Positions 3,454 through 17,638 of a stretch of 64,000 nucleotides of DNA are shown here, piece after piece (within the stretch, counting starts at the first letter, position 1; every line of letters begins with the position of its first letter). The translations under genes and the position numbers were made by a program. The DNA is taken from positions 930,001 to 994,000 of the forward strand of contig CM026548.1 of assembly GCA_014905635.1 (NCBI GenBank), in the 5' to 3' direction. The notes beneath the pieces are model-generated. The model did not search any database. It was given only the letters and a program-made list of their open reading frames with translations, and was not told the DNA's origin. The DNA is from Scenedesmus sp. PABB004. Lineage: Eukaryota.

Positions 3454-6400
3454 ATGGAGGCCCGCCCCGCGCCGCCGGGCCGGGGCGCCGCTGATGGAGC
3501 GCAAGGCACTCCTCTCGTCTGCATGGTGCGCGCGCGGCAGCGGGCAACCCGCGCGCGGGACGGCACGCCATCGCTCCCGGTCGCGAGCGGCCGCCGCGCG
3601 CCACCGAGCCCACGACGCCTGCACGACGCCGCGCTCACGGCTTCGGCTTGGGCCCCGCCACGTCCTGCTCGCCGGCGGACGGCTGGCGTGGCGCGGCTGT
3701 GGCACTCACCGGTGCCGCCGCTGCCGCCGCGGTCTGCTGTCCGCAGGTGCCGGGCTGCGACGCCGACCTGAGCGAGGGCAGCCACTACCTGCGGCGTCAC
3801 CGTGTGTGCCACACGCACCTCAAGGCGCCCGCGGTGGCCATCAACGGCGTCGACTGCCGCTTCTGCCAGCAGTGCGGGCGCTTCCAGCCGCTCGACGAGT
3901 TCAAGGGCGAGCGCAAGTCCTGCGAGGCCGCGCTCGCCGCGCACAACGCGCGGCGGCGCGTCAAGCGCGACAGCAGCGTCGGCTGCTTCGACGACCGCGT
4001 GCGCGCGGCCAAGCGCAGCCACCACCTCTACGCCGCCGGCGGCGGCGCGCCGCGCAGCACGTCCGCCGACGGCGCGGGCACAGCGGCGGGCGCGGCGGCG
4101 GGCCGGCGCGCCGCGGCGCGCCGGCACGCCTCGCAGCGCAGCGCGTCCGCGGCGGCGGCGGCGGCGGCCGCCGCCGCGCACGCGGCCGCCGAGCTGCCGG
4201 CCGCCGCCGGCAGCGGCAGCGACGGCACGCGCAGCAACTCGCGCGAGCCGCACGAGAGCGGCAGCTTCAGCAGCCGCTCGCCGGAGCAGCACAGCTCCGG
4301 CTCGGGCGAGGCCGGCGGCCGCGCGCTGTACGCGGGGCAGGCGCGCGACGCGGCGGCGAGCATGCAGCAGCAGCTGCGCCTGCACTCCCTGAGCGGCAGC
4401 GGCGGCGCCGGCGCCGCGCACGGCAGCGGCGCGTCGCCGCCCGAGGAGGCCTGGGGCACGGTGGGCGCGGAGCTGCAGGGCGCCATCAACGCTGTTACGG
4501 ACTGGTACAACAGCGAGGAGGCGGTCGCGGCGGGCATGCTGCCCGCCAAGCCGGCGGGGCCCGGCAGCGGGAGCGGCAACGCGAGCAGCAGCGGGGAGAT
4601 GCTCACCGTTCTCCCGCCGCAGCAGCTGCTGCAGCAGGACCTGGCGGCGCTCTACGCGGCACGCCCGCTGGTGCAGCAGGCGGCCCCGCGGCAGCCGCAC
4701 GGGGCGCAGCGCGTCGCCCCGGGCGGGGGCGCGGGCGCGTCGCCGCCATCGCTGGCCTGGACCGGCTTGGCCGCTGGTGCTCCCGGCGCAGGGGCCGGCA
4801 GCGCCCAGTGGCAGGTGCAGCAGCTGAGGGAGCTCCTGGCGGCGGAGGAGCTCGCCGCGCCGCGCGGCGGCGCGGCCGCACGCGCGCCGGCGCCGCCCGC
4901 CGCGCCGCTGGCGACGGGCGCCGTCGCGCCCGCCGGCGGCGTGGCGGCCGCGGCGGGCGCGGCGGCCGGCCCCGACGCCGATTCGATCCTGGACCAGACG
5001 CTGGACCTGCTGCTCGCTGCGTACCCCGGCTGGCAGGTCATGGACACGCCCGCGGCGTCGGCGCAGGTCAGCCCCGCCGGCTCGGGCATGACCGCCCCGG
5101 CCGCGGGCTCGCCCCAGCGCAGCGGCGCGGCGTGCCTGTCCGCGGCGCACTCGCTCAGCTCGGGCGCGACGGCGGCAGCGGGCTGCCCCGGCGCGAGCGT
5201 GGGCAGCCAGCCGGGCAGCGGGCTCGGCGCCGGCGGCGCGTGCCTGCCGGTCGGCAGCGGGCCGCATGCGGCGGCGCTGGCGCCGTGGCAGCAGCAGCAG
5301 CAGCAGCTGTCGCCGCCGCGTCACGCCTCGTCACAGCTCGCGCAGCCGCAGCTCGCGCGGCACCCGGCGCCGCTGCAGGCGCCGCTGGGCTTCTGCCAGC
5401 AGCAGCTGCAGCACGATCTGCAGCAGCTGCAGCAGCAGCACCTGGACCTGGCGGCGATGCAGGTGTCCCAGGGCATGGTCGCGATGATGCAGCAGCAGCA
5501 CCTGGACCTGGCGGCGATGCAGGTGTCCCAGGGCATGGTCGCGATGATGCAGCAGCAGCACCTGGACCTGGCGACCATGCACGTTTCCCAGGGCATGGCT
5601 GCGCCGGCGCAGCAGCCGGGTGCGCCGTTTGTGCCGCACGGCCTCTCGGCGCCGCTCGCGGCGCCCGGCGGCGCGGCGCAGCACGCGTTTGGCGCGCACC
5701 CGCCGGTGCCGCTACAGCTGGCGAACCAGCCCCGCTTCGTGCCCGGGCCGGCGGCGCCGGCGGCGACCGCGGCGGTGGCGCAGCCACAGCAGCAGGTGCT
5801 CGCCTCTTTCACGCAGCAGCTGGTCCGCATGAGCGTCAAGCTGCACGGCGTCACGCCGGAGCAGCTGCCGCCGCACACGCTCACGGCGCTGCACCGCGTC
5901 GTGGCCACGAGTGCGGCGGAGCTTGAGATCCTGCTTCTCTCGCCGGCCATCCGCTCCGGGTGCGTGCAGCTCGAGCTCGACGTGCTCGTCAAGTGCCCCG
6001 AGCTCGCCGGCGCAGGGCTGGAGGAGCCCAGCGTCAGGGGCGCTGGCAGTGGCGGCGGCAGCGGCAGCGGCAGCGGCAGCGAGCTCGGTGACGAGCCGAG
6101 CGGCGAGCCGAGCGGCGAGCCGAGCGACGCGAGCAGCGACGTGAGCAGCGAGGCGGGCAGCAGGGACCTGGGCGAGCACGACGTGGCGACGGAGGAGGAG
6201 GAGGCAGACGAGCACGCGGGCACCGAGAGCGCCGCGCAGCTGCGCGCGGAGGCGCTGCTGCGGCTGCGGGTGCCGGTCCGGCTGCTCGTGGACGCGCTGC
6301 TGGCGCCGCCGCCGCCGGGCGGCCCCGCCGGCGACGCCGGCCTGGGCGGGCGGCTGACGGCTGTGTACGCTCAGGTCGGCAACGCGCTGGGCACGTGGCG

Positions 6401-8030
6401 GCGCGGCGGCGCGCTGCGCGAGTGGACCCGCGAGCTCGGCGACCTGGCAGAGGCGCCCGACGACGGCCCCGCCGCGAGCGAGGGCGCGCTGGCGGCGGCG
6501 GGCGTGCAGCTCTGCGACGCGTCCAGCCAGCTGTCGGACGACTCCTCCGCCTCAACGGGCCGGCACGGCGGCGGCGTGGAGCGGCCCGCGCTGGTCTGCG
6601 TTGAGCCCTGGGCGGCGCCCGCGGCGGTGGTGCCGGCCGGCGGCGCGCGCGTGGTGGAGCTGCAGGTGGCCCTGGTGCAGGGCGGCGCCGGCGGCGACGC
6701 GCCGCTGGTCCGCCTGTGGGCCACGCGGCGTGGCGCGTTCTGTGCCGTTGAGTGCGCGGCGCTCCCGCGCGGCGAGGGCGCCGCGCCCGCGGAGGCCGCG
6801 GCGGCGCGCGGCCTCGCGCCGGGCGAGCGCCTGGCGCTGCGACGCCTGACCGTGTCCCTGCCGGACGGCGCGCCCGGCCTGCTGCTGCTCCAGGCGGAGC
6901 GCGGGCTCGCGCTGCGGCGCGCGCTGGCGCCGCCCGCGGGGCGCGCCGGCGGCGCGGCCGCGGCGCGCGGGCAGGAGGCCGACGGCCTCGGCCTGATGAG
7001 CAACCTGCTGCCCGTCGTGGTGTGCTCGCCAGACATGGCCGCCGAGGTCGAGGCCAAGCTGCGCGGCGCGCCGCCCACGGCGGCGCGCCAGCTGCTGCTG
7101 CACCTCGGCCTGCTCCTTGATTTTGGAGAGCTGCTCGCGGCGGCGCAGCGCGGCGGCAGTGCCGCCGCCGCTGCCGCCGGCGCGCCGGGCGGCGGGCTCG
7201 CCGGCGCGGCGCGCGCGCACGAGGCGGCGCTGCTGGCCAGCCGGCCGTACCTGTCGGCGATGCGGTGCGCGCGCCGCGGCCGCGGCCGCGCGCGCGGGGC
7301 CTCCCCGCGCCCCGACGCCCGCGCTGACGCGCCGCCGCCTGCCCGCCCGCCCGCCCGCCCGCCCGCCAGATTCATCGGCTACCGCCTGCTCGTGTTCGCG
7401 CTCGGCCAATCAATGGGCGCGACCGCCGCGCACGTGGGCAGCATCCTGCGCGCCATGCAGCCGCGCGCGAGCGCGGCGCGCGCGGCGCCCCCGCGGGCCG
7501 GCGCCGGCGCGCCCGGCGGTGGCGCCGGGGAGCTCGAGGAGTGCGGCGCCCCGCCGGCCAAGCCCGCCCACTGCGGCGCGGGCAGCAGCGGCGCGCCCGC
7601 CTCTGGCGGCGCGGGCAGCTCCAAGGCCGGCGGCGCGCCGCCGGGCGGCGCCAAGGGCGGCGGCGCCGCGGCCCGCGCGCCGTCGTCGCAGTCGCCGCTG
7701 CACATCCTGCGCGGCGCGCTTCAGGTCATGGCCATGCTGCTCGTGATGTACCTCCTGCTCGGCGTCGCGGCCGCCGCGGTCAAGGGCCGGCGCCCCGCGG
7801 CGGAGCTGCTGCGGTCGCTGAGGCAGATCCGGGCGCTGCTCGGCCTCATGCTCGCGCCGCTCGCGATGATGCTGCTCGGCCTGCTCGCCGCGGCCGCGCA
7901 GTACGGCGCCGCGCCGCGGGCGGCCGCGGCGGCGCCGGCGCGCGGCGGCGCAGCGTGCGCGGGCGCGCCCTTGCCGCCCGGCAAGGGCGGCGCGCGCACG
8001 CGCGCCGACGCGGCCGCGTGCCCGTGCTGA
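3454..8030 (+). CDS. SBP (SQUAMOSA promoter-binding) transcription factor, long CRR1/SPL1/SPL7-like architecture with C-terminal hydrophobic helices
   Basis: Exon 1 3454-3525 splices (GT 3526, AG 3746) to give CM|VPGCDADL...RHRVCHTH...RFCQQCGRF..EF...KSC...HNARRR. Downstream are SVKLHGVTPEQLP and IRSGC (IRPGC-type) motifs and two hydrophobic segments near the C-terminus. An upstream in-frame ATG at 3259 is possible. Confidence 0.9.
5428..5598 (+). repeat. 60-bp coding tandem repeat, about 2.8 copies (QQQHLDLAAMQVSQGMVAMM)
   Basis: 5431-5490 and 5491-5550 are identical; the third copy at 5551-5598 is diverged. Confidence 0.95.
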
Positions 8031-9101
8031 CCGCCCCCGCGCGCGCCGCCCAGCCCGGGTGGCTCGGTGCTCGGTGCTTTTGAGTTTCCAACGTGCGAGG
8101 GGGGGGAGGGACTGGGGTGGTTTTGGGCTGCCTGGGGCGACATCCTCTCTCTCTTCCTAAGCACATGCATGCGCAGCTGCGGCTGGGGCGGCCAGCCCAT
8201 GTGCGCGGCGCCGCCGTGGCCCCGTCCGACGACGGCCGCGGCGGCGGTGCCGCCGGGCTGCGCGGACCCGCGAGCGCGCGCCGGCCAGCTGAGCGGGGCC
8301 TGGTGCCGTTGTGGCGCTCGCAGGACTGAATTGCCACATAGCGTGGCTGCGCGCCAGGCCGCGGGGGCCTGCAGTGTCGAATGGCGGGGGCTGCGCACCG
8401 CTGCGCGCCCAGGCGCATCTGAGCTGGCAGCGGCGTCGCCGCCGCGCCCATGGTTGCGGCGTGCGCGCGTGCGCAGGGGGGCCTGTGAGAAGCGAATCGG
8501 CACGGATCGATGGTTTGTGAGGGGCCGCGCGCTGAGCCGCCGGAGCCCGCCACGCCACGCGTGGCTGTTGATCATCCGCCCGCACTGCCACCAACTAAAC
8601 ACCTGGCTTCGTATCGTACTGCGTTAGGGGTGCGTGCGGCACGGCGCGGTGCTCTGGTGCCGCGATAGCACCAGCGCACGGCGCGCCCGCCCCTGCTTCT
8701 TTTGTCACGCCCTGTCGGCCGAAGCGCGCCAGCGCGCGTGGTGCCGGCCTGTGGCCGGGGCGGTGGGCGCGTGGGGGCTCACCAGTCGCGTCGCGCGCGG
8801 GGAGGGAAGAAAAGAGGAAATCACAGTCGGTGAGGCGCAATCAAAAACGGTAGTATGCATGCACCAGGTGAGCCGGCCCCACCACCAACGACGCACTGTC
8901 TGTAGTCGGTCGGTCCCACGGCCTCGCTGAGTGAGCTCCCTGGAGCGGTTGACCTGCAATGACCGGAGGCCCGAAGACGACCGGCACTGCTTCTGTCGGG
9001 CGTGCACACTGCTGCTGCGTGCGGGAGCACCACCACTCAGTCACACTGAGACCGACGGGAATTAACGGCTTCGGCAACAAGGCCGGAGAGGGGCCGGGCC
9101 T

Positions 9102-9106
9102 TGTAA
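9102..9106 (+). promoter_or_regulatory. Candidate chlorophyte polyadenylation signal TGTAA (SBP gene)
   Basis: TGTAA is the established chlorophyte poly(A) signal. This is the first copy I noticed downstream of the SBP stop, about 1.1 kb away. Confidence 0.3.
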
Positions 9107-9139
9107 TCCGGCGCGCGCGCGTCCACGGCGCCGGCCGGC

Positions 9140-9743
9140 CGTCGCGGCCGCGGTCACAGCTTCCCCGGCGCTGGTTGGCCTCCCACCGCCCGGTCGTGAC
9201 CGCGCCCTGCTTTGCGCAGAGCTGGCGGCGTGCCGCAGCCGCGCGTGGGCGGGAGACGGATGGTGGCGCGCGTCCGCGCGGGCTGAACGCCCTCGGCCAA
9301 TGGGCGCGCGGCGCGCCCCCGCGCTGGCGGGGGCGCTGCTGCTGGGCGTCCTGGGCGCCCTGGCCGCACCGGCGGGCGCGCCGGTGGGCGCGCCGGCGGG
9401 CGCGCCGGCGGGCGTGGCCCACGTCTCCGATGAGGCGATGAGCGTGCTCTGGGCCGCCCTGGCCGCGCCCGACGTGGCCAGCATCGTGCTGGAGCAGGAC
9501 ATCCTGTGGCAGCCGGGCACGCCGGAGCGCCTCGGCTACAGCCGGGAGCGCCCGCTGCGGCTCGCGCGCGCCGTCAACCTGACCAGCAGCCCGCCGTGGC
9601 GCCGGCTTGACTTTGCGTTCCTGGGCGACGGCCAGCTCCAGCTCGCGCCCGGCGTCATGCTGAGCATCAACGCCACCATCCTCGCGCACGCCAGGTCGCC
9701 GGCGCCGCGCGCTCGCAGCTCGCGCGCGCGCGGGCGCGCAGCT
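9140..9743 (+). repeat. Direct segmental duplication of 12094-12680 (5' flank, exon 1 and start of intron 1 of the receptor kinase)
   Basis: Near-identical sequence from cgtcgcggccgcggtcacagcttcccc to gcgcgcagct in both copies, with few substitutions and small indels. Confidence 0.97.
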
Positions 9744-9755
9744 GCAATGGGCTGA
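9300..9755 (+). pseudogene. Truncated copy of kinase exon 1: signal peptide plus N-terminal ectodomain half (151 aa if unspliced); pseudogene, secreted fragment or alternative first exon
   Basis: ATG 9300, intact frame, intact donor AG|GT at 9694/9695, stop TGA at 9753-9755 just past the homology breakpoint. Confidence 0.6.
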
Positions 9756-9842
9756 TCAGCCCATGTCATGACCGCCGCCGGCCGAGGGCGGCCCAGCGTC
9801 CGCCGAGAGCCGCGGGGCCAGCGGAACGTGGCGCGTCCAAGA

Positions 9843-9847
9843 TTACA
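9843..9847 (-). promoter_or_regulatory. Candidate TGTAA poly(A) signal for the PAN-like gene
   Basis: ttaca on + strand, about 380 nt downstream of the stop at 10228 on the minus strand. Confidence 0.4.
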
Positions 9848-10227
9848 CGCTGCGGACGCGGCCGCACTCTCTTTGTCTGTCGCCTCACCAAAACCACAAC
9901 ACCCGCGGCCCTGGACAGGGCTCATGCGTCTGCTCCTTCTGTTCTGTTACCTGCCTGCCTGCCCGTACGCCCAGGCCGCGCCCCAGTGCTGCCAACGCCG
10001 ACGCGCCGCGCCGCCGGCGGCGCGCGGCGCCGCGTGCTCCCGGTGTTTTGCTGTGCACATTCCAGAGCGGAGATCTGCCGGCTGCAATACTGAAACTCCC
10101 GTTCAGGAGGCCCACGCTGCAGTTGGACCAGCGCTGTCGTTCAGACGGGGCGCTGCAGCCCCCGACGGCCTCGGTCCTTTGTCTGCCGCACTCAGGGCCA
10201 CGGGGCCGAGGCGTGCGGCCGCGCCTC

Positions 10228-11155
10228 TCACTCGCGAACGTACGCCGTCCAGCCGCGCTTGCCCGCGACGCCCGCCCCGGCCTTGAGGTAGCCGCACTGG
10301 TTGACCGCGTCCCTGCGCGTGCGCGCCGCCGTGCGCGCCCCATGCGCGCTCGACGCCCGCCCCGCGCGCGCGCCGCCGTGCGCGCCCCGCCGCGCGCGCC
10401 CGCCCCGCCCCGCCCTGCCGCTCACCAGGTGAAGGCGACGCAGCGCCCGCGCGCCGCGCACGCGTCCTTGACATCGGTGAGCGTGCCGCAGACCATGCAG
10501 AACGCGTTCTTGTCACACGGGATCTGTGCGCGGCGCGGGCGCGGCGGGGCGCGCGCGTGGGGCGCGGGGCGCGCGGCGGCGCGCGCGCACGCCGGCCGCG
10601 CGGCGCGGCGCGGCCCGCGGCACGGCGCGGCGCGGCCCGCGGCACGGCGCGGCGGCGCGCGCGCGAGGCGTGGCGCGGCGGCGCGGTGCAGCGCGGCGGT
10701 GCGGCGCAGCGCGGCGGTGCGGCGGTGCGGTGCGGTGCGGGCGGCGGTGTGGCGGCGCGCACGTCGTTGCCTGGGATGTCCATGTCGGCCTTGGGCTTGA
10801 GCTGCACCGTCATCTGCGGCGCCAGGAGCAAGGGCGGTCCGCCGTGCGGCTCGGCGCGGCGCCGCCAGGCTGCGCGGCGCCCGGCGCGCGGCGCGCGGCC
10901 GCCCGCGCCCGCGCGCGCGCGCGCGCCCACCGAGACGGGGACGACCGCAGAGGGGGTCGTGCCGACGGACGGGTTGGAGCAGCGGCACTCGGTGCTGCCG
11001 GGCGGGCCCTGGCTGTTGCCCTGGACCAGCACGTCGTAGTTCGCGCCGCCCGCGGTGCACGTGCGCGTGCGCCGCCAGCTCACGGGCGTGCCGCCCCACG
11101 CGCACTTCGCATTGGAGTTGAAGTTGTTCTTGCAGCAATCGACTGGGCCGCCCAT
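10228..11155 (-). CDS. Small Cys-rich protein with C-terminal PAN/Apple-like domain (4 exons)
   Basis: Exons 11155-10931, 10813-10763, 10523-about 10426 and about 10312-10228 join in frame: MGGPVDCCKNN...CRCSNP...|MTVQLKPKADMDIPGND|IPCDKNAFCMVCGTLTDVKDACAARGRCVAFTW|DAVNQCGYLKAGAGVAGKRGWTAYVRE. The D-xx-GND...C...C-VAFT...YLK pattern is PAN-like. Start codon uncertain. Confidence 0.7.
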
Positions 11156-12254
11156 GGCATTGGCTGCGCGCGGGGGTGCGGTGCGCGCGAGGGGCGGTGA
11201 GCCGGCAGGGCGGCAGCGCAGCGCACGTTGGCTGCGCGGCGGCGCCGCGCGAGCCGGCGTGGCAGCGACGGGCGGGGTGCGGCGCGCACCGGCGCGACGG
11301 GCGGGCGGCGGCGCGCGCCGACGCTGGGGGCTGCGCTGGGGCTGTGATCGGGCTGCGAGCGGCGCCCTGGGGCCGCGATCGGCGCCGATCTGCATCTGCG
11401 CCGCTGCCGCGCCGGCGCCGCCGGCGGCCGCCGCTGCAGCAACCGCTTCTAGCCGCCGCGCGCACCGAAATACGCATTGCACGTCGCGGACGGGCAGCCC
11501 TGCGCGGCCGCGCCGGCGGCAGCGCCCAGGAGGGCGAGGAGGGCGAGCTGCGCGAACATGGCTGCAGCGGGGTCGCGGGCAGGTGCGTCGACGAGATCTA
11601 AAAAATGATCGTGGTGCGCCGGGGGAGGCGGGCCAACATGGCAGACGCCGCGCCGGCGACCGCTGCGCCTCGACCGTTCGCGCGCCGGCGCCGGCGCCGG
11701 CGGCGGCGGGTGAGGCGCTCAGCGGTCCGCTGCGGAGGGCCGCCCTCTGTCTCGCTCCGCCCGGCCCGGCTCGCCGGCGTCGGCAACAGGCGCTCGCCGC
11801 CGTGCGCGCGCTCGCCCGGGCGCGCGCCGGCCGATGGGCGCAGCCGCAGCAGCAGCTTGGCCGCCGCGCGCTGGCCGGCCGGCAGGCCTGCGTCGGGGAC
11901 GCGAGAGGGCCGGCCGTCGCGCGCCGTGCGCGCGGCGCGATCGCGTCGTCGCAAATCGGCGACGCGACGCGCGCCGCAGCGCCCCGGCGGCGAGCCCGCG
12001 CGGCGCTGCTGCGCCGCCGCCGTCCACCACCTCCGGTGCGTCAGGCAGAGCGCCAGAGGCAGCGCCCAGGCGACGGCGCGCTGGGCGAGCAGTCGTCGCG
12101 GCCGCGGTCACAGCTTCCCCGGCCGCTGGTTGGCCTCCCACCGCCCGGTCGTGACCGCGCCCTGCTTTGCGCGGAGCTGGCGGCGTGCCGCAGCCGCGCG
12201 TGGGCGGGAGACGGATGGTGGCGCGCGTCCGCGCGGGCTGAACGCCCTCGGCCA

Positions 12255-15200
12255 ATGGGCACGCGGCGCGCCCCCGCGCTGGCGGGGGCGCTGCTGCTGG
12301 GCGTCCTGGGCGCCCTGGCCGCGCCGGCGGGCGCGCCGGCGGTCGCGCCGGCGGGCGTGGCCCACGTCTCCGATGAGGGCGCGCTCTGGGCCGCCCTGGC
12401 CGCGCCCGACGTGGCCAGCATCGTGCTGGAGCAGGACATCCTGTGGCAGCCGGGCACGCCGGAGCGCCTCGGCTACAGCCGGGAGCGCCCGCTGCGGCTC
12501 GCGCGCGCCGTCAACCTGACCAGCAGCCCGCCGTGGCGCCGGCTTGACTTTGCGTTCCTGGGCGACGGCCAGCTCCAGCTCGCGCCCGGCGTCATGCTGA
12601 GCATCAACGCCACCATCCTCGCGCACGCCAGGTCGCCGGCGCCGCGCGCTCGCAGCTCGCGCGCGCGCAGGCGCGCAGCTTCCGCGCGGCGCGCTGCGCG
12701 CAACCGCAACCGACGCCGCGCAACCGCCGCCGCCGCCGCAGCAGGTATGGGGTCGGCGTCGGCCTCGACTTCCTGGCCAACTCCCCCGGCGCGTTCCTGG
12801 TCCTGGCGGACTCGATCCAGATGCGCCTGGCCTGCGTGCCGACGTCGGGCGAGCCGGACGCCGTGCGCGTGCAGCCGCGCCTGCCGGGTGCGCGGCCGCG
12901 CGGCCCCGCGGCCGCGCGGCCCGCGGCCGCGCGCGGCGTCGCCGCCCCGCCGCGCGCCCTGCGCGCCGCCGCGCCCTGCGCACGACGCCCCGGCCGCGCG
13001 CGCCGCGCCCCGGCTGCGCAGGCTTCCCCGGGCACCAGGAGGCGCGGTACTTGGACCAGGTGTGCGTGCGCCGCGCGTGCTACTCCAACGCGCTGCGCTA
13101 CGACGACTACACCAAGCTCACGGGCACGCCCACCGAGGACACCGCGGCAGGTCCGCGCCGCGCGCCGCGCGGGCGCGGCGCCCGCCGCCGCAGAGCGCCG
13201 CGCGCGCGGCCGGCGCCACAACCCGCCCGCCAGCCCGCCGCTGTCACCCACCGCCCGCCCGCGCGCCGCCCAGGCGGCTACGCGATCATCATGCGAAACT
13301 TCACCAAGGTCTGCATGTCCTTTGTGCGCCAGTGCGCCGAGTCGACGGTGCACTCGGCGGAGCGCTGCGTGCAGGACGCGCTCGACGACCTCGCCGACGT
13401 GCCCACGCCGGGGCAGCGCGACGCGGCCGCGGCGGCGGCGAGCCGCCGCGCGGCCGCGCTCGCGGCGGGCCTCGGCGCGGGCCTCGGCGCCGCCGGCGCC
13501 GCCGCGGCGGCGGCGCTCGCGCTGCTGCTCTGGCGGCGGCGCCGGCGGGCGCGCCGGGGTGACGACGAGGAGGCGGTGCAGCGCAGGTCGGGCAAGCGCC
13601 TGGCCGGCCACAGCGGCAGCGGCGGCGGGCTGGCGTCAGCGTCGACCGGCAGCACGCCGGAGCCCCCGTGCGGCGCGGCGGCGGTGCTGGGTCCGCGCGG
13701 CAGTCCCGTGTGCGGGTGAGCGGCGCGGCGCGGCGCTGCGCGCGCCGGGCGGGCGCGCGGCCGCGGCGCGCGGCCGTCGACGGCGCCGCCGCCCGCAGGG
13801 GCAAGTCGGCGGCGTTTGATGCGACGTCCACGCCGCCCAGCGGCCACAACAGCTGGGAGCTGGCCGCGTGTAAGACGTCGCAGCACTTCCTGCACGCGAG
13901 CCAGCACCAGCACTCCGGCAGCGCCGAGCTCGGCGGCTGGCCGATGCGCGGCCCCCGCGGCGGCAGCCGCGGCAGCGGGCTGCTGAGCGGCGCGAGCGGC
14001 ACGAGCGGCGGCGCGCTGCCCGCGAGCGCCAGCACCGCCGACCTCATCGCCGGCACGTGCACCGGCAGCGACCGGGTCACGCTCGGCGTGCTCCTCGGCG
14101 CAGGTGCGCACGCCCAGCGGCGGCCGCGCCGCCGCCGCCGCAGCGCCGCCCCGGCCGCGCCGCCGCGCTGCGGCCGACGCGCGCCCGCGCGCGCCGCGCC
14201 GCCGCCGCCTGCCGCCCGCCGCGCCGGGCACAGGCAGCTACGGCCGTGTCTACCGGGGCCGCTGGCGGGGCATGGACGTCGCGGTCAAGGTGCTGCAGCA
14301 CTCCCGGCGAGCAGCCAACAGCGTGGCGAACGAGGTCGACCTCATGTGCGCAGCGCAGCGCACAGCACGCACAGCGCGCACAGCGCGCGGCGCACAGCGC
14401 ACGCGGAGGCCGGGGCCCCGCCCGCCGCCGCCGCCGCCGCGCTCGCGCCCTGGGGCGGTAGCGCGCGGCAGGGGCGGCAGCGCGGGCGCCGACGCCGCCT
14501 GCGCGCGCGCGTGGCGCCGCCCGCAGGATGGGATTCCGGCACCCGCACGTGGTGTCGGCGCACCACTTTGTGTCGTGGCGCAAGCGCGGCGGCCGCACGC
14601 TGGCCCTGCCCAAGGAGGCGCGTGCGCCCGCCCCGCCCCCGGGCGGCACCGTCGCGCGGCGCGGCCGTGGCGCCGGCCGCGCCGCCGGCAGCGGCGCCCG
14701 CCCGCTCACCCCGCCGCGCCGCGCCCGCCGCCGCGCCCTGCCCGCGCCCGTGCAGCTCGGCTCGGGGGACGCCTGGCTGGACGAGGCCGACACGCGCGCC
14801 GCGGCGGACGCGAGCGCGGGGGACTGGCCCGTCGAGGGCACGGGGGGCACAGAGTTCCAGGAGGAGCTGCTGGAGGACACGGTCACCTGGATTGTGCAGG
14901 AGTTTTGCGACGCCGGTGCGCGCGGGCCTGCCCGGCCGGCGCGGGCCTGCCCGGCCGGCGGGCCTGCGGCGGCGCACCGCACGCCCGCGAGTCGGCGGGG
15001 CCGGCCGCTCCGCCGCTCAGCGCGCGCGCTGCCGCCGGCGCCCCCGCAGGCAGCCTGGCGGAGTACCGGATCCACCCCAGCGACCGGCCGGGCGAGGAGC
15101 GGCTGCAGCTGCCGGACGGCCACGCCATGGTGCGCCGCCGCCGGCCCCGGCGACGCGCCGCTGACGCCGCTGCAGCTGCTGCTGCCGCTGCCGCCCGCCG

Positions 15201-15387
15201 CCGCACGGTGCTGCCTGCTGCTGCCGCTCACCGCCACCCCTCACCACCCCCACCCCCTCCCCCACAGCTGCGCCTGCTGTTCCGGCTGCGCGAGGTCGCG
15301 GACGGCATGTCGCACCTGCACGAGCGCGGCGTGGTGCACGGCGGTGCGTCCCCCTGTCGCACGGGCGCCGCGCCGCCTGCCTGCGTG

Positions 15388-15439
<52 letters not shown>

Positions 15440-16485
15440 CTGGCGCTAACCGCACACGGGCCGCCGCCGACGGTCACGCGCCACAGACCTCAAGTCGGGC
15501 AACGTGATGCTTTGCGTCTCGCCCTCCTCGCCCTACGGCCGCGTGGCAAAGATCACCGACTTTGGTCTGAGCCGGGCCTTCGCGAGCGGCCAGACGCACC
15601 GCAGCACGCACACGCTCGGCACAGTGCGGCGCCGCGCGGCGCAGCACACCGCCGCGTGCGCGCGCACGCGGGGCGCGGCGCCCCACGCCCGCGCGCGCGC
15701 GCGCCCGCAGGTCTCGCACATGGCGCCGGAGCTGCTGCGCTGGGGCAAGATGTCGCCGCCGGTCGACGTGTTCAGCTTTGGGATCATGAGTGCGCCCCGC
15801 GGCTGCCGCGGGCCCCCGCGCGCCCACACCCGCGACCCGCCCGGCGGCCCGGCCCGCCGCCGCCGGCCCTCGCCGCGCGGCCGAGCCCCGCCGCCGCCGC
15901 CGCCGCCGCCGCCGCTGCCGCCGCCGCCGCGCGCGCAGTGTGGGAGCTGCTCACCGGCCGCGCCGCCTACTCGGGGCAGCACTACGGCGCCATCATCGAG
16001 CACGTGGCGCTGCTCGGCGAGCGCCCCGCCGTGCCGGCCGCGGCGCCGGAGGACTTTTCTCTGCTCATGGGCTCCTGCTGGCACGCCGACCCCGCGCAGC
16101 GCCCCACGTTTGAGCAGGCGCGCGCGCGCGCGCCCGCTGCGGCTGGCGCGGGGGCGGGGGCGGGGGCTGCGCGGCGCGGCGCGGCGGGCCGCGCGCCCGC
16201 GCTGCGCGCCCACGCACCACCCCGCGCGCCCGCGCCGCCGCGCCGCCGCCGTTGCCGCGGCCACAGGTGGTTCGCTGCCTGGACATCATGATCACCGCGC
16301 GGCAGCAGGAGCTGGCCGAGGCCAAGAGCGGCAGCGGCCTGTTTGACGGCCCGCTGCGCGACTCGCCGGCGCCCGCCGGCAGCGGCGGCCCGGCCTGCGT
16401 GCCCGCCGGCAGCGGCAGCCCGGCATGCGCGCGCGCCGGCAGCGGCAGCCTCGCGGGCGCGCGCACGGGCAGCGGCAGCCTCGCG

Positions 16486-16527
<42 letters not shown>

Positions 16528-16821
16528 GGCAGCTTGCTGGGCATGTCCCAGCTGTCGGCGAGCAGTGGCGAGTTTGACATGCTGCTTCGCGGCGGCCACT
16601 CTCTCTCTGGCAGCAGGCTGGCGCGGCAGACGTCGCCCCAGGTGCTCGTGCTGCGCAGCGGCAGCGGCGGGCTCGGCGCCTCTGGCGAGCACATCTCTGG
16701 CGGCGCCGGCGTCTCGGCGGGCGCGTTTGCGGCCGTGCAGCGGCAGCGCCAGCAGGCGCCGCTGCGGGGGCCGGCCGGAGCGCTGCCAGACGGCGGCCCG
16801 CACGGCCCGCAGGACCTCTGA
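12255..16821 (+). CDS. Receptor-like Ser/Thr kinase (TKL group): signal peptide, Cys-containing ectodomain, TM helix, kinase domain
   Basis: Signal [35 protein letters not shown] followed by RRRRR. Kinase motifs LGAG|SYGRVY, VAVK, HG|DLKSGN, DFG, T|VSHMAPE, DVFSFG and RPTFEQ are all recovered by splicing. Confidence 0.92.
15375..15440 (+). repeat. (GCCT)n intronic microsatellite
   Basis: Directly visible in the kinase intron. Confidence 0.95.
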
Positions 16822-17638
16822 GCGGCCGCGCGCGGCGCTCGCCCCCCCGCCGGCGGCGGCGCCTGCTGCCCGGCCGGCGATTGGGGGACGGCTGGGATGG
16901 CGGCTGGGCGGCTCCGGCGGGCCATGATGGAATCATGTCGGCACTTGGATGCCTGGGGCTGACGGCTCGTCTGGGCACACCGTCGTGAGAGTGAACACTT
17001 GTCAGCAGGCCCACCTTGCTCATGCTTGCCGCGCGATGCGCACTCTGCATCAGTGCCGCTACCAGGGGCCTCGCGCCCTGGACGGCTTGCTATAGCCATC
17101 CGCCAGTGCGCGCGCGCGTGCGCTTGGCGGGGGGAGTGCGCGTCGGCAGTGTCTTATCGGGGGGAGGCCGGCCGCACCTCTCAATTGCTTGGGCTTCCTG
17201 CGCGGGCCGGCACCGGGCGCGGGCGTGCGCACGTGGCGCGCGGCCATGTATGGCCGCCGAAGCTCGGGCGGTGGCGCCGCCACCTCGTCTTGTGCAGGAC
17301 TGATGATGATGCCTCGCCGATCGGTCGGGGGGGCTGTGCTGCTGCCCCAGCGCCAGCTCAGCTCAGGGGGCGCGCAGCCGCGCGCGCGGCGGCGGCCCAC
17401 TCTCCCTCAAACCCAAGCTCGGTGTGCTGTCTATCGCTCGATCGATCGTGGCCCGGGGCCAGCAGCGGCTGTATGACTGTTGTGCGCGAGCCTGTCGACG
17501 GCGCGTGGGCTATCGGGCGCCGCTGGACTTGCCGGCCTTGCCGGCCGGCGGGTTGTGGGGACGCGGCGGGAGGCAAAGTTGCAGCGAGGAGCCCGATCCA
17601 CCGCCTGCCCGCCCCGCACCGCCGCGGCGCCGCCGCGG

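Follow-up and report, generated by a model that had tools for sequence, protein, structure and literature searches.

Within a 64,000-nucleotide (nt) stretch of contig CM026548.1 from the green alga Scenedesmus sp. PABB004 (the window; all positions are counted from its first letter), a 604-nt block, here termed copy A, was found to repeat the beginning of a receptor kinase gene, in which the native counterpart is termed copy B. The repeated sequence comprises 160 nt of 5′ flank, the ATG, the whole of exon 1, the GT splice donor and 49 nt of intron, and copy A lies 2.95 kb upstream of copy B. Copy A is probably a young relic of a local DNA duplication and would have no function of its own. It sits between two convergent gene 3′ ends and is part of no annotated protein. 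The features that bear directly on this reading are as follows.

9140..9743, + strand: copy A, the upstream duplicate block, with 160 nt of flank, the exon-1 copy and 49 nt of intron
9300..9694, + strand: exon-1 copy in copy A, 131 codons plus 2 nt, followed by an intact GT donor at 9695–9696
9300..9755, + strand: read-through open reading frame (ORF) of copy A, 151 amino acids (aa), with its stop codon at 9753–9755
12094..12680, + strand: copy B, the native block, running from the 5′ flank through exon 1 to the 49th nt of intron 1
12255..16821, + strand: coding sequence of the receptor kinase, 14 exons and 13 introns of 83–181 nt, whose translation equals the annotated protein P0001 exactly (954 aa)
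12632..12744, + strand: intron 1 of the kinase gene, 113 nt, phase 2, of which copy A has the first 49 nt only

A single same-strand repeat pair with clean junctions

Using a repeat search, a MAFFT alignment and a blastn comparison of the window with itself, one same-strand pair was obtained, 9140–9743 with 12094–12680, which aligned over 605 columns (bit score 966, E = 0) and was the sole dispersed repeat of at least 100 nt in the window at E <= 1e-20. Identity begins at C9140/C12094, the preceding base being C in copy A and T in copy B, and continues to T9743/T12680, after which copy A reads GCAATGGG and copy B reads TCCGCGCG. The sequences flanking the two copies are unrelated and both junctions are clean. 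The ATG stands at 9300 in copy A and 12255 in copy B, the GT donor at 9695 and 12632, respectively, and the 2350 nt of spacer between the copies is unique sequence that contains a complete conserved gene (gene Y).

The two copies differ by six substitutions and three indels. One substitution falls in the 5′ flank (9218), four in the coding part (9306, 9385, 9400, and 9445, where copy A carries G9306, T9385, G9400, and T9445), and one in the intron (9732, G in copy A). As to the indels, copy B has an additional C at 12123 in the 5′ flank, whereas copy A has 12 additional nt at 9365–9376, which make up one GAPx unit, that is, one unit of a 12-nt repeat, and 6 additional nt at 9436–9441, which give EAMSVLW in copy A against EGALW in copy B. 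The original prediction, made on the letters of the window, had given the same two intervals, and these proved exact. It had also held that the copy was made at the DNA level and is no retrocopy, which agrees with the inclusion of flank and intron, that the coding indels (12 and 6 nt) preserve the frame, and that copy A reads through into a 151-aa ORF, all of which were borne out. Both duplicated flanks also carry an 8-codon upstream ORF (ATG...TGA; 9260–9286 and 12215–12241) that ends 14 nt ahead of the main ATG and would be relevant only if the transcript starts upstream of it.

Copy B holds the first exon of a probable transmembrane receptor kinase gene

The exon-1 peptide of copy B was 100% identical to a single protein, P0001, annotated as 'Map3k12 [Scenedesmus sp. 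PABB004]' and located on a 1.59-Mb contig, and exon 2 of the gene starts at 12745. Eleven of the kinase-gene introns are GT-AG and two are GC-AG (14618–14755 and 16118–16266), and both of the latter are needed for the exact match to the annotated protein. A (GCCT)n microsatellite at 15375–15442 lies in the intron that separates the kinase HG and DLK motifs. A kinase domain was identified in P0001 by its PF07714 match (E = 2.1e-48), with the exon pieces colinear with the profile. Read by eye, the start of P0001 resembles a signal peptide, and an Ala/Leu-rich span precedes the sequence RRRRRARR. Judged from these features, P0001 would be a single-pass transmembrane receptor kinase, in line with the receptor kinase of the original prediction.

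Copy A carries exon 1 and no other part of the kinase gene

A tblastn search with the full 954-aa P0001 against the window matched copy A over residues 1–126 only (9300–9695, 92% identity over 132 columns), and returned no other part of the kinase gene outside 12255–16818. Among annotated proteins of 220–2000 aa the exon-1 peptide matched P0001 only, and the 151-aa ORF had no match among proteins of 83–265 aa. No Pfam family was found in the exon-1 peptide or in the 151-aa ORF, and Rfam gave no match at E <= 0.1 over 8000–17500. The 151-aa ORF consists of exon 1 plus translated intron and flank, and a read-through ORF of the same kind exists in copy B. By eye, the start of copy A resembles a signal peptide.

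We propose that the start of the kinase gene was copied as a 604-nt stretch, made up of 160 nt of flank plus exon 1 and the next 49 nt, from intron 1, and that this patch would have been inserted 2.95 kb upstream, where the 3′ ends of gene Y and of gene X on its other side converge with only a short gap left. It may have arisen by repair or recombination, for example by insertion of a templated patch at a break near the palindrome at 9747–9764, and copy A would be the secondary copy. Such a copy would keep an ATG, a signal-peptide-like start and a donor. Because it has no nearby acceptor partner and no other kinase exon, copy A most likely has no useful role, and its product would at most be a rare unspliced transcript with the 151-aa ORF, covering under half of the beta-helix ectodomain that is described below.

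The youth of the duplication is suggested by the small number of differences, six substitutions in ~586 aligned nt, none of which falls between 9446 and 9731. All four coding substitutions are nonsynonymous (A3T, V29A, G34V, and V49A, given from copy A to copy B), and the positions at which the proteins differ belong to the signal peptide, to the low-complexity GAPx linker and to the domain's first turn. With four coding substitutions, all nonsynonymous, and no outgroup, the ratio of nonsynonymous to synonymous rates (dN/dS) is powerless here. That 9446–9731 has no synonymous changes is, as far as the two sequences can tell, a sign of recency or gene conversion rather than of selection.

Several observations weigh against a young, non-functional relic. 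The differences are unevenly spread, with a difference-free run of at least 286 nt (P = 0.024 for nine events and 0.13 for substitutions only); this could have come from gene conversion, and the age would then be uncertain. Copy A keeps the 160-nt flank, the ATG, an open frame, the identical donor and 37 identical intron bases, and splicing from 9694 to 12745 gives an intact 960-aa ORF. Its coding indels, of 12 and 6 nt, are both divisible by three and the non-coding indel is 1 nt, as would be seen under constraint; the 12-nt indel, however, is a unit of a 12-nt repeat, and either frame-keeping change may have occurred in the working copy B. The direction, copy A from copy B, is based on composition and position only. 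The TGTAA motifs on either side of copy A, at 9102 on the + strand (38 nt ahead of it) and at 9847–9843 on the − strand (100 nt past it), are a hint only: TGTAA occurs 3 and 2 times on the two strands of the window against ~2.6 per strand estimated from composition, and because this frequency is no higher than composition predicts, both motifs are weak markers of 3′ ends.

Other classes of duplicate were considered and rejected. A processed retrocopy was discarded because the intron start is kept and no A-run or target duplication is present at the junctions. A long terminal repeat (LTR) retrotransposon was discarded because the repeats begin with CGTC and end with AGCT instead of TG..CA, the internal part encodes a conserved 186-aa secreted-type protein with introns and no Pfam family, and one of the two 'repeats' is the working first exon of P0001.

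Templated 'filler' insertions are known at repaired double-strand breaks. Copy A is like them in that its source is 2.3 kb away, its site is intergenic, no target-site duplication is seen, and a palindrome lies 4 nt from the junction; it differs in that 604 nt is long for such an insertion and no microhomology is evident at the junctions, and the mechanism itself is one that we infer. Copy A is also like partial gene duplicates made as DNA-level segmental copies, being on the same strand, near, highly identical, with flank and intron included and the rest of the gene absent; unlike them, it is a 604-nt piece, not in tandem, placed beyond a complete opposite-strand gene, in a genome for which the assembly figures of PMC12571836 give 1.31% repeats. 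Partial gene duplicates are a known kind, and copy A is a new, ordinary instance of it. If copy A is such a relic, it is a clean and very young copy of a promoter-plus-first-exon module in a compact, repeat-poor algal genome of 78.5% GC. From copies like this, alternative first exons, exon shuffling or new small secreted proteins can arise, and copy A taken alone would be an ordinary by-product.

Exon 1 encodes about two-fifths of a single predicted beta-helix domain

The ectodomain of P0001 (residues 35–266, 232 modelled residues) was used as a HMMER query, and 94 relatives were found at E <= 1e-3. The long relatives align to it as a single stretch, from about residue 5 to 230, and a kinase domain was present in all nine long proteins scanned, P0001 included. 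No Pfam family matched the P0001 ectodomain. For PF20585, a pectate-lyase-like adhesive domain with a cut-off of 24.3 bits, some relatives reached or came close to that score: P0065 had 25.3 bits and P0005 had 23.2 bits.

An AlphaFold2 model of the ectodomain, built on an alignment of 30 relatives, gave one compact domain (mean predicted local distance difference test score (pLDDT) 92.3, predicted template modelling score (pTM) 0.88). A Foldseek search of this model against PDB gave no match at E <= 0.001, the best having E = 0.043. The best VIA-align match was 5nxk_A, the beta-solenoid of an L. reuteri SRRP (Z 10.7, root-mean-square deviation 2.7, 125 residues across model residues 1–212), and the rows under it were mostly right-handed beta-helix lyases or other enzymes and tailspikes (Z 4.3–7.8). 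On this model, the P0001 ectodomain is one right-handed beta-helix of ~230 aa. 5nxk, the binding region of the Lactobacillus reuteri SRRP, is thus a fold match to the modelled ectodomain; the sequence identity is 16%, and the P0001 helix differs in belonging to a eukaryotic transmembrane kinase, where it forms the ectodomain, and in having a C-terminal part that bears cysteines.

Exon 1 supplies model residues 1–92 of the 232, ~40% of the ectodomain. In at least eight short database 'proteins' of relatives the match ends at query residue 92–93, and these look like single-exon ORF calls, not stand-alone genes, with the intron position conserved, as read from where the matches stop.

These results bear on the possibility that copy A makes a small secreted protein or decoy, that is, that it is transcribed, left unspliced and translated to a 151-aa secreted product consisting of a signal peptide, the GAPx linker, the first beta-helix rungs and a 20-aa Arg-rich tail. 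Nothing interrupts the ORF, which runs from the ATG, through a start that by eye looks like a signal peptide, to the stop at 9753–9755, and both coding indels preserve the frame, as a translated product would have it. It would contain, however, only model residues 1–92 of a single-domain helix of 232 residues, and the rungs further along and the C-terminal part with its cysteines, both conserved in the family, would be missing; the ORF is merely exon 1 read into the intron, which copy B can form likewise; the short 'proteins' of at least eight relatives that end at the same point look like exon ORF calls; no similar protein of 83–265 aa is on record; and the + strand has no TGTAA between 9744 and 13868, itself a weak marker here. 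We regard a secreted product of this kind as unlikely. Known soluble decoys keep a complete binding domain. The copy A product resembles soluble decoy receptors and truncated receptor-like proteins in joining a signal peptide to an N-terminal ectodomain part with no anchor or kinase, but differs in keeping ~40% of a single beta-helix domain, so that exon 1 falls short of the complete ligand-binding domain that a decoy would need. By the ectodomain model, with ~40% of a one-domain solenoid in the 151-aa product and neither the later rungs nor the cysteine-bearing end, a working decoy from copy A is unlikely.

A term search of the main text of a survey of Chlorophyta receptor kinases (PMC12757656) did not return the words 'pectate' or 'pectin lyase', and in the part of that survey covered here PABB004 is not listed, the Scenedesmus entry being taxid 2650976 (NREL 46B-D3). 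The parent gene family, algal and apparently transmembrane kinases with a predicted right-handed beta-helix ectodomain that lacks a Pfam model of its own, is the more useful by-product of this analysis.

Contigs from other samples bridge the left junction of copy A

Three coded DNA metagenome runs from three studies (X1–X3), in which 5–12% of sampled sequence words were present, contained near-identical short contigs of the same organism at low depth, covering 8908–9955 and 11316–11607; the other contigs from X1–X3 at the locus were GC-rich fragments of other organisms. The runs listed for the locus included no RNA run. X1 record 1 (9009–9271) and X2 record 10 (9049–9199) span the junction between gene X and copy A with at least 60 nt on each side. 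X1 and X2 have a common 8-nt deletion at 9034 relative to the window, which indicates that these samples are not the reference strain. X1 record 3 (9722–9955, 0 differences) runs from copy A into the gene Y tail and carries the A-specific G9732; with 22 nt in the repeat, below the 31-nt rule, it is weak. Among the contigs of X1–X3, none was listed across 12094, and none was listed with a join from 9743 to 12681 or from 9694 to 12745. In the JGI metagenome contigs, a protein-pattern scan for related loci found no relative, and the three loci picked out by an exact 20-mer scan (L001–L003) were dismissed as chance matches with no further similarity to the window.

The contigs that bridge the left junction of copy A argue against a mis-join. 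They bear on the proposal that the pair is an assembly artefact, in which alleles or reads of a single exon 1 were placed twice and the genome has one copy. The divergence of ~1% with small indels is what alleles would show, but the copies are 2350 nt apart, with unique sequence and a complete conserved gene between them and with clean junctions; records from two other samples and studies (X1 record 1 and X2 record 10) cross from gene X into copy A; X1 record 3 continues from copy A to the gene Y tail, weakly, on 22 nt of repeat; and the assembly is highly contiguous by the figures in PMC12571836 (39.8 Mb, 77 contigs, N50 1.3 Mb, 78.5% GC, and 1.31% repeats). An artefact is very unlikely on this evidence.

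Copy A as an alternative first exon

Copy A might instead serve as an alternative first exon with its own promoter, its donor at 9695 being spliced over gene Y and copy B to the acceptor at 12744/12745, which would yield a receptor of 960 aa whose N-terminus is slightly changed, in a layout similar to that of variable first-exon clusters. The splice signals would allow this: the copies agree fully in the donor and in the first 37 bases of the intron, both are in the same phase (2), the joined ORF is open over 960 aa, and copy B, as a first exon, would have no acceptor to trap such a transcript. The original prediction had raised this same-phase splice from 9694 to 12745, and the frame is indeed kept. 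It had also noted that the ~3-kb intron would be far above the local norm, and this holds as well: 3050 nt would be needed, 17–37 times the 83–181 nt of the gene's 13 introns. That intron would hold the complete conserved opposite-strand gene Y, a second identical donor, in copy B, stands much closer to the acceptor, and only 160 nt of upstream sequence was copied, beyond which lies the gene X tail. The receptor itself would be barely altered, the changes falling in the signal peptide, the GAPx linker and the start of the domain, and the annotated model uses copy B. An alternative first exon at copy A is accordingly rated as highly improbable.

UGT1A and the clustered protocadherins are variable first-exon clusters. 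As in those clusters, shared exons are preceded by first exons, here two, that each bring a flank, an ATG, a signal peptide and a donor, and either of the two joins exon 2 in frame. The difference is that there are only two units here, nearly identical to each other, and that the would-be intron of 3050 nt has another gene inside it, so that the likeness is one of layout only. A minimal variable-first-exon locus over a nested gene Y, or read-through of gene Y across copy A that would give RNA antisense to kinase exon 1, is extremely unlikely on the sequence. If either were true, the duplicate would link gene Y, with its putatively secreted, cysteine-rich product, to the receptor beside it, the support being the intact signals and the open frame.

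Neighbourhood of copy A and direction of the duplication

The features around copy A are as follows.

8028..9139, + strand: gene X stop codon (8028–8030) and its tail, which resembles an untranslated region (UTR), 70.7% GC, with TGTAA at 9102
10228..11559, − strand: gene Y (hypothetical protein HT031_002660), 186 aa in 5 exons, with the ATG at 11559 and the stop codon at 10228–10230
9747..9764, no strand: perfect 18-nt palindrome that begins 4 nt past the right end of copy A

In gene X, coding periodicity extends as far as the stop codon at 8028–8030. Besides the copy pair, the only other hit in the blastn self-comparison, a tandem repeat at 5428–5598 (60-nt offset, 96% identity), falls within coding sequence of the gene X region. 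The gene Y product is cysteine-rich with a signal-peptide-like start and has relatives of 60% identity in two other assemblies; no Pfam family was found in it, and its C-terminus might be PAN/apple-like. The tail of gene Y, which points towards copy A, is 70.2% GC. Copy A is a 79% GC island that makes up most of the gap between the convergent 3′ ends of genes X and Y, and the context of copy B is 80.5% GC, with a 695-nt divergent intergenic region common to gene Y and the kinase gene. The window as a whole is ~80% GC.

This composition bears on a reversed history, in which copy A would be the original first exon, a long first intron would have enclosed gene Y, and copy B would be a newer copy, placed 64 nt upstream of exon 2, that took over. 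The sequence data are symmetrical, with nothing in the copies that polarises the event, and relatives leave the 6-nt indel ambiguous, since their N-terminal sequences align only weakly upstream of it. Nevertheless, copy A is a GC-rich island in UTR-like sequence of 70% GC, whereas copy B stands in sequence of 80% GC like the rest of the gene, and an ancestral 3-kb intron would be needed in a gene whose introns are 83–181 nt; the exon-1 boundary conserved in relatives says nothing on intron length. We consider this order of events quite unlikely and retain the copying of a relic from copy B to copy A.

Of the 69 perfect palindromes of at least 16 nt that were listed, only the one at 9747–9764 exceeds two A/T bases; it has 8 among its 18. 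The local fold of its hairpin is ordinary for the composition (z = −0.88). It may be a break-prone site or a shared terminator hairpin.

Gene Y, divergent from the receptor kinase, is flanked by the two copies as direct repeats of 600 nt. Recombination between these direct repeats could delete gene Y together with the kinase promoter, and the region may vary between strains.

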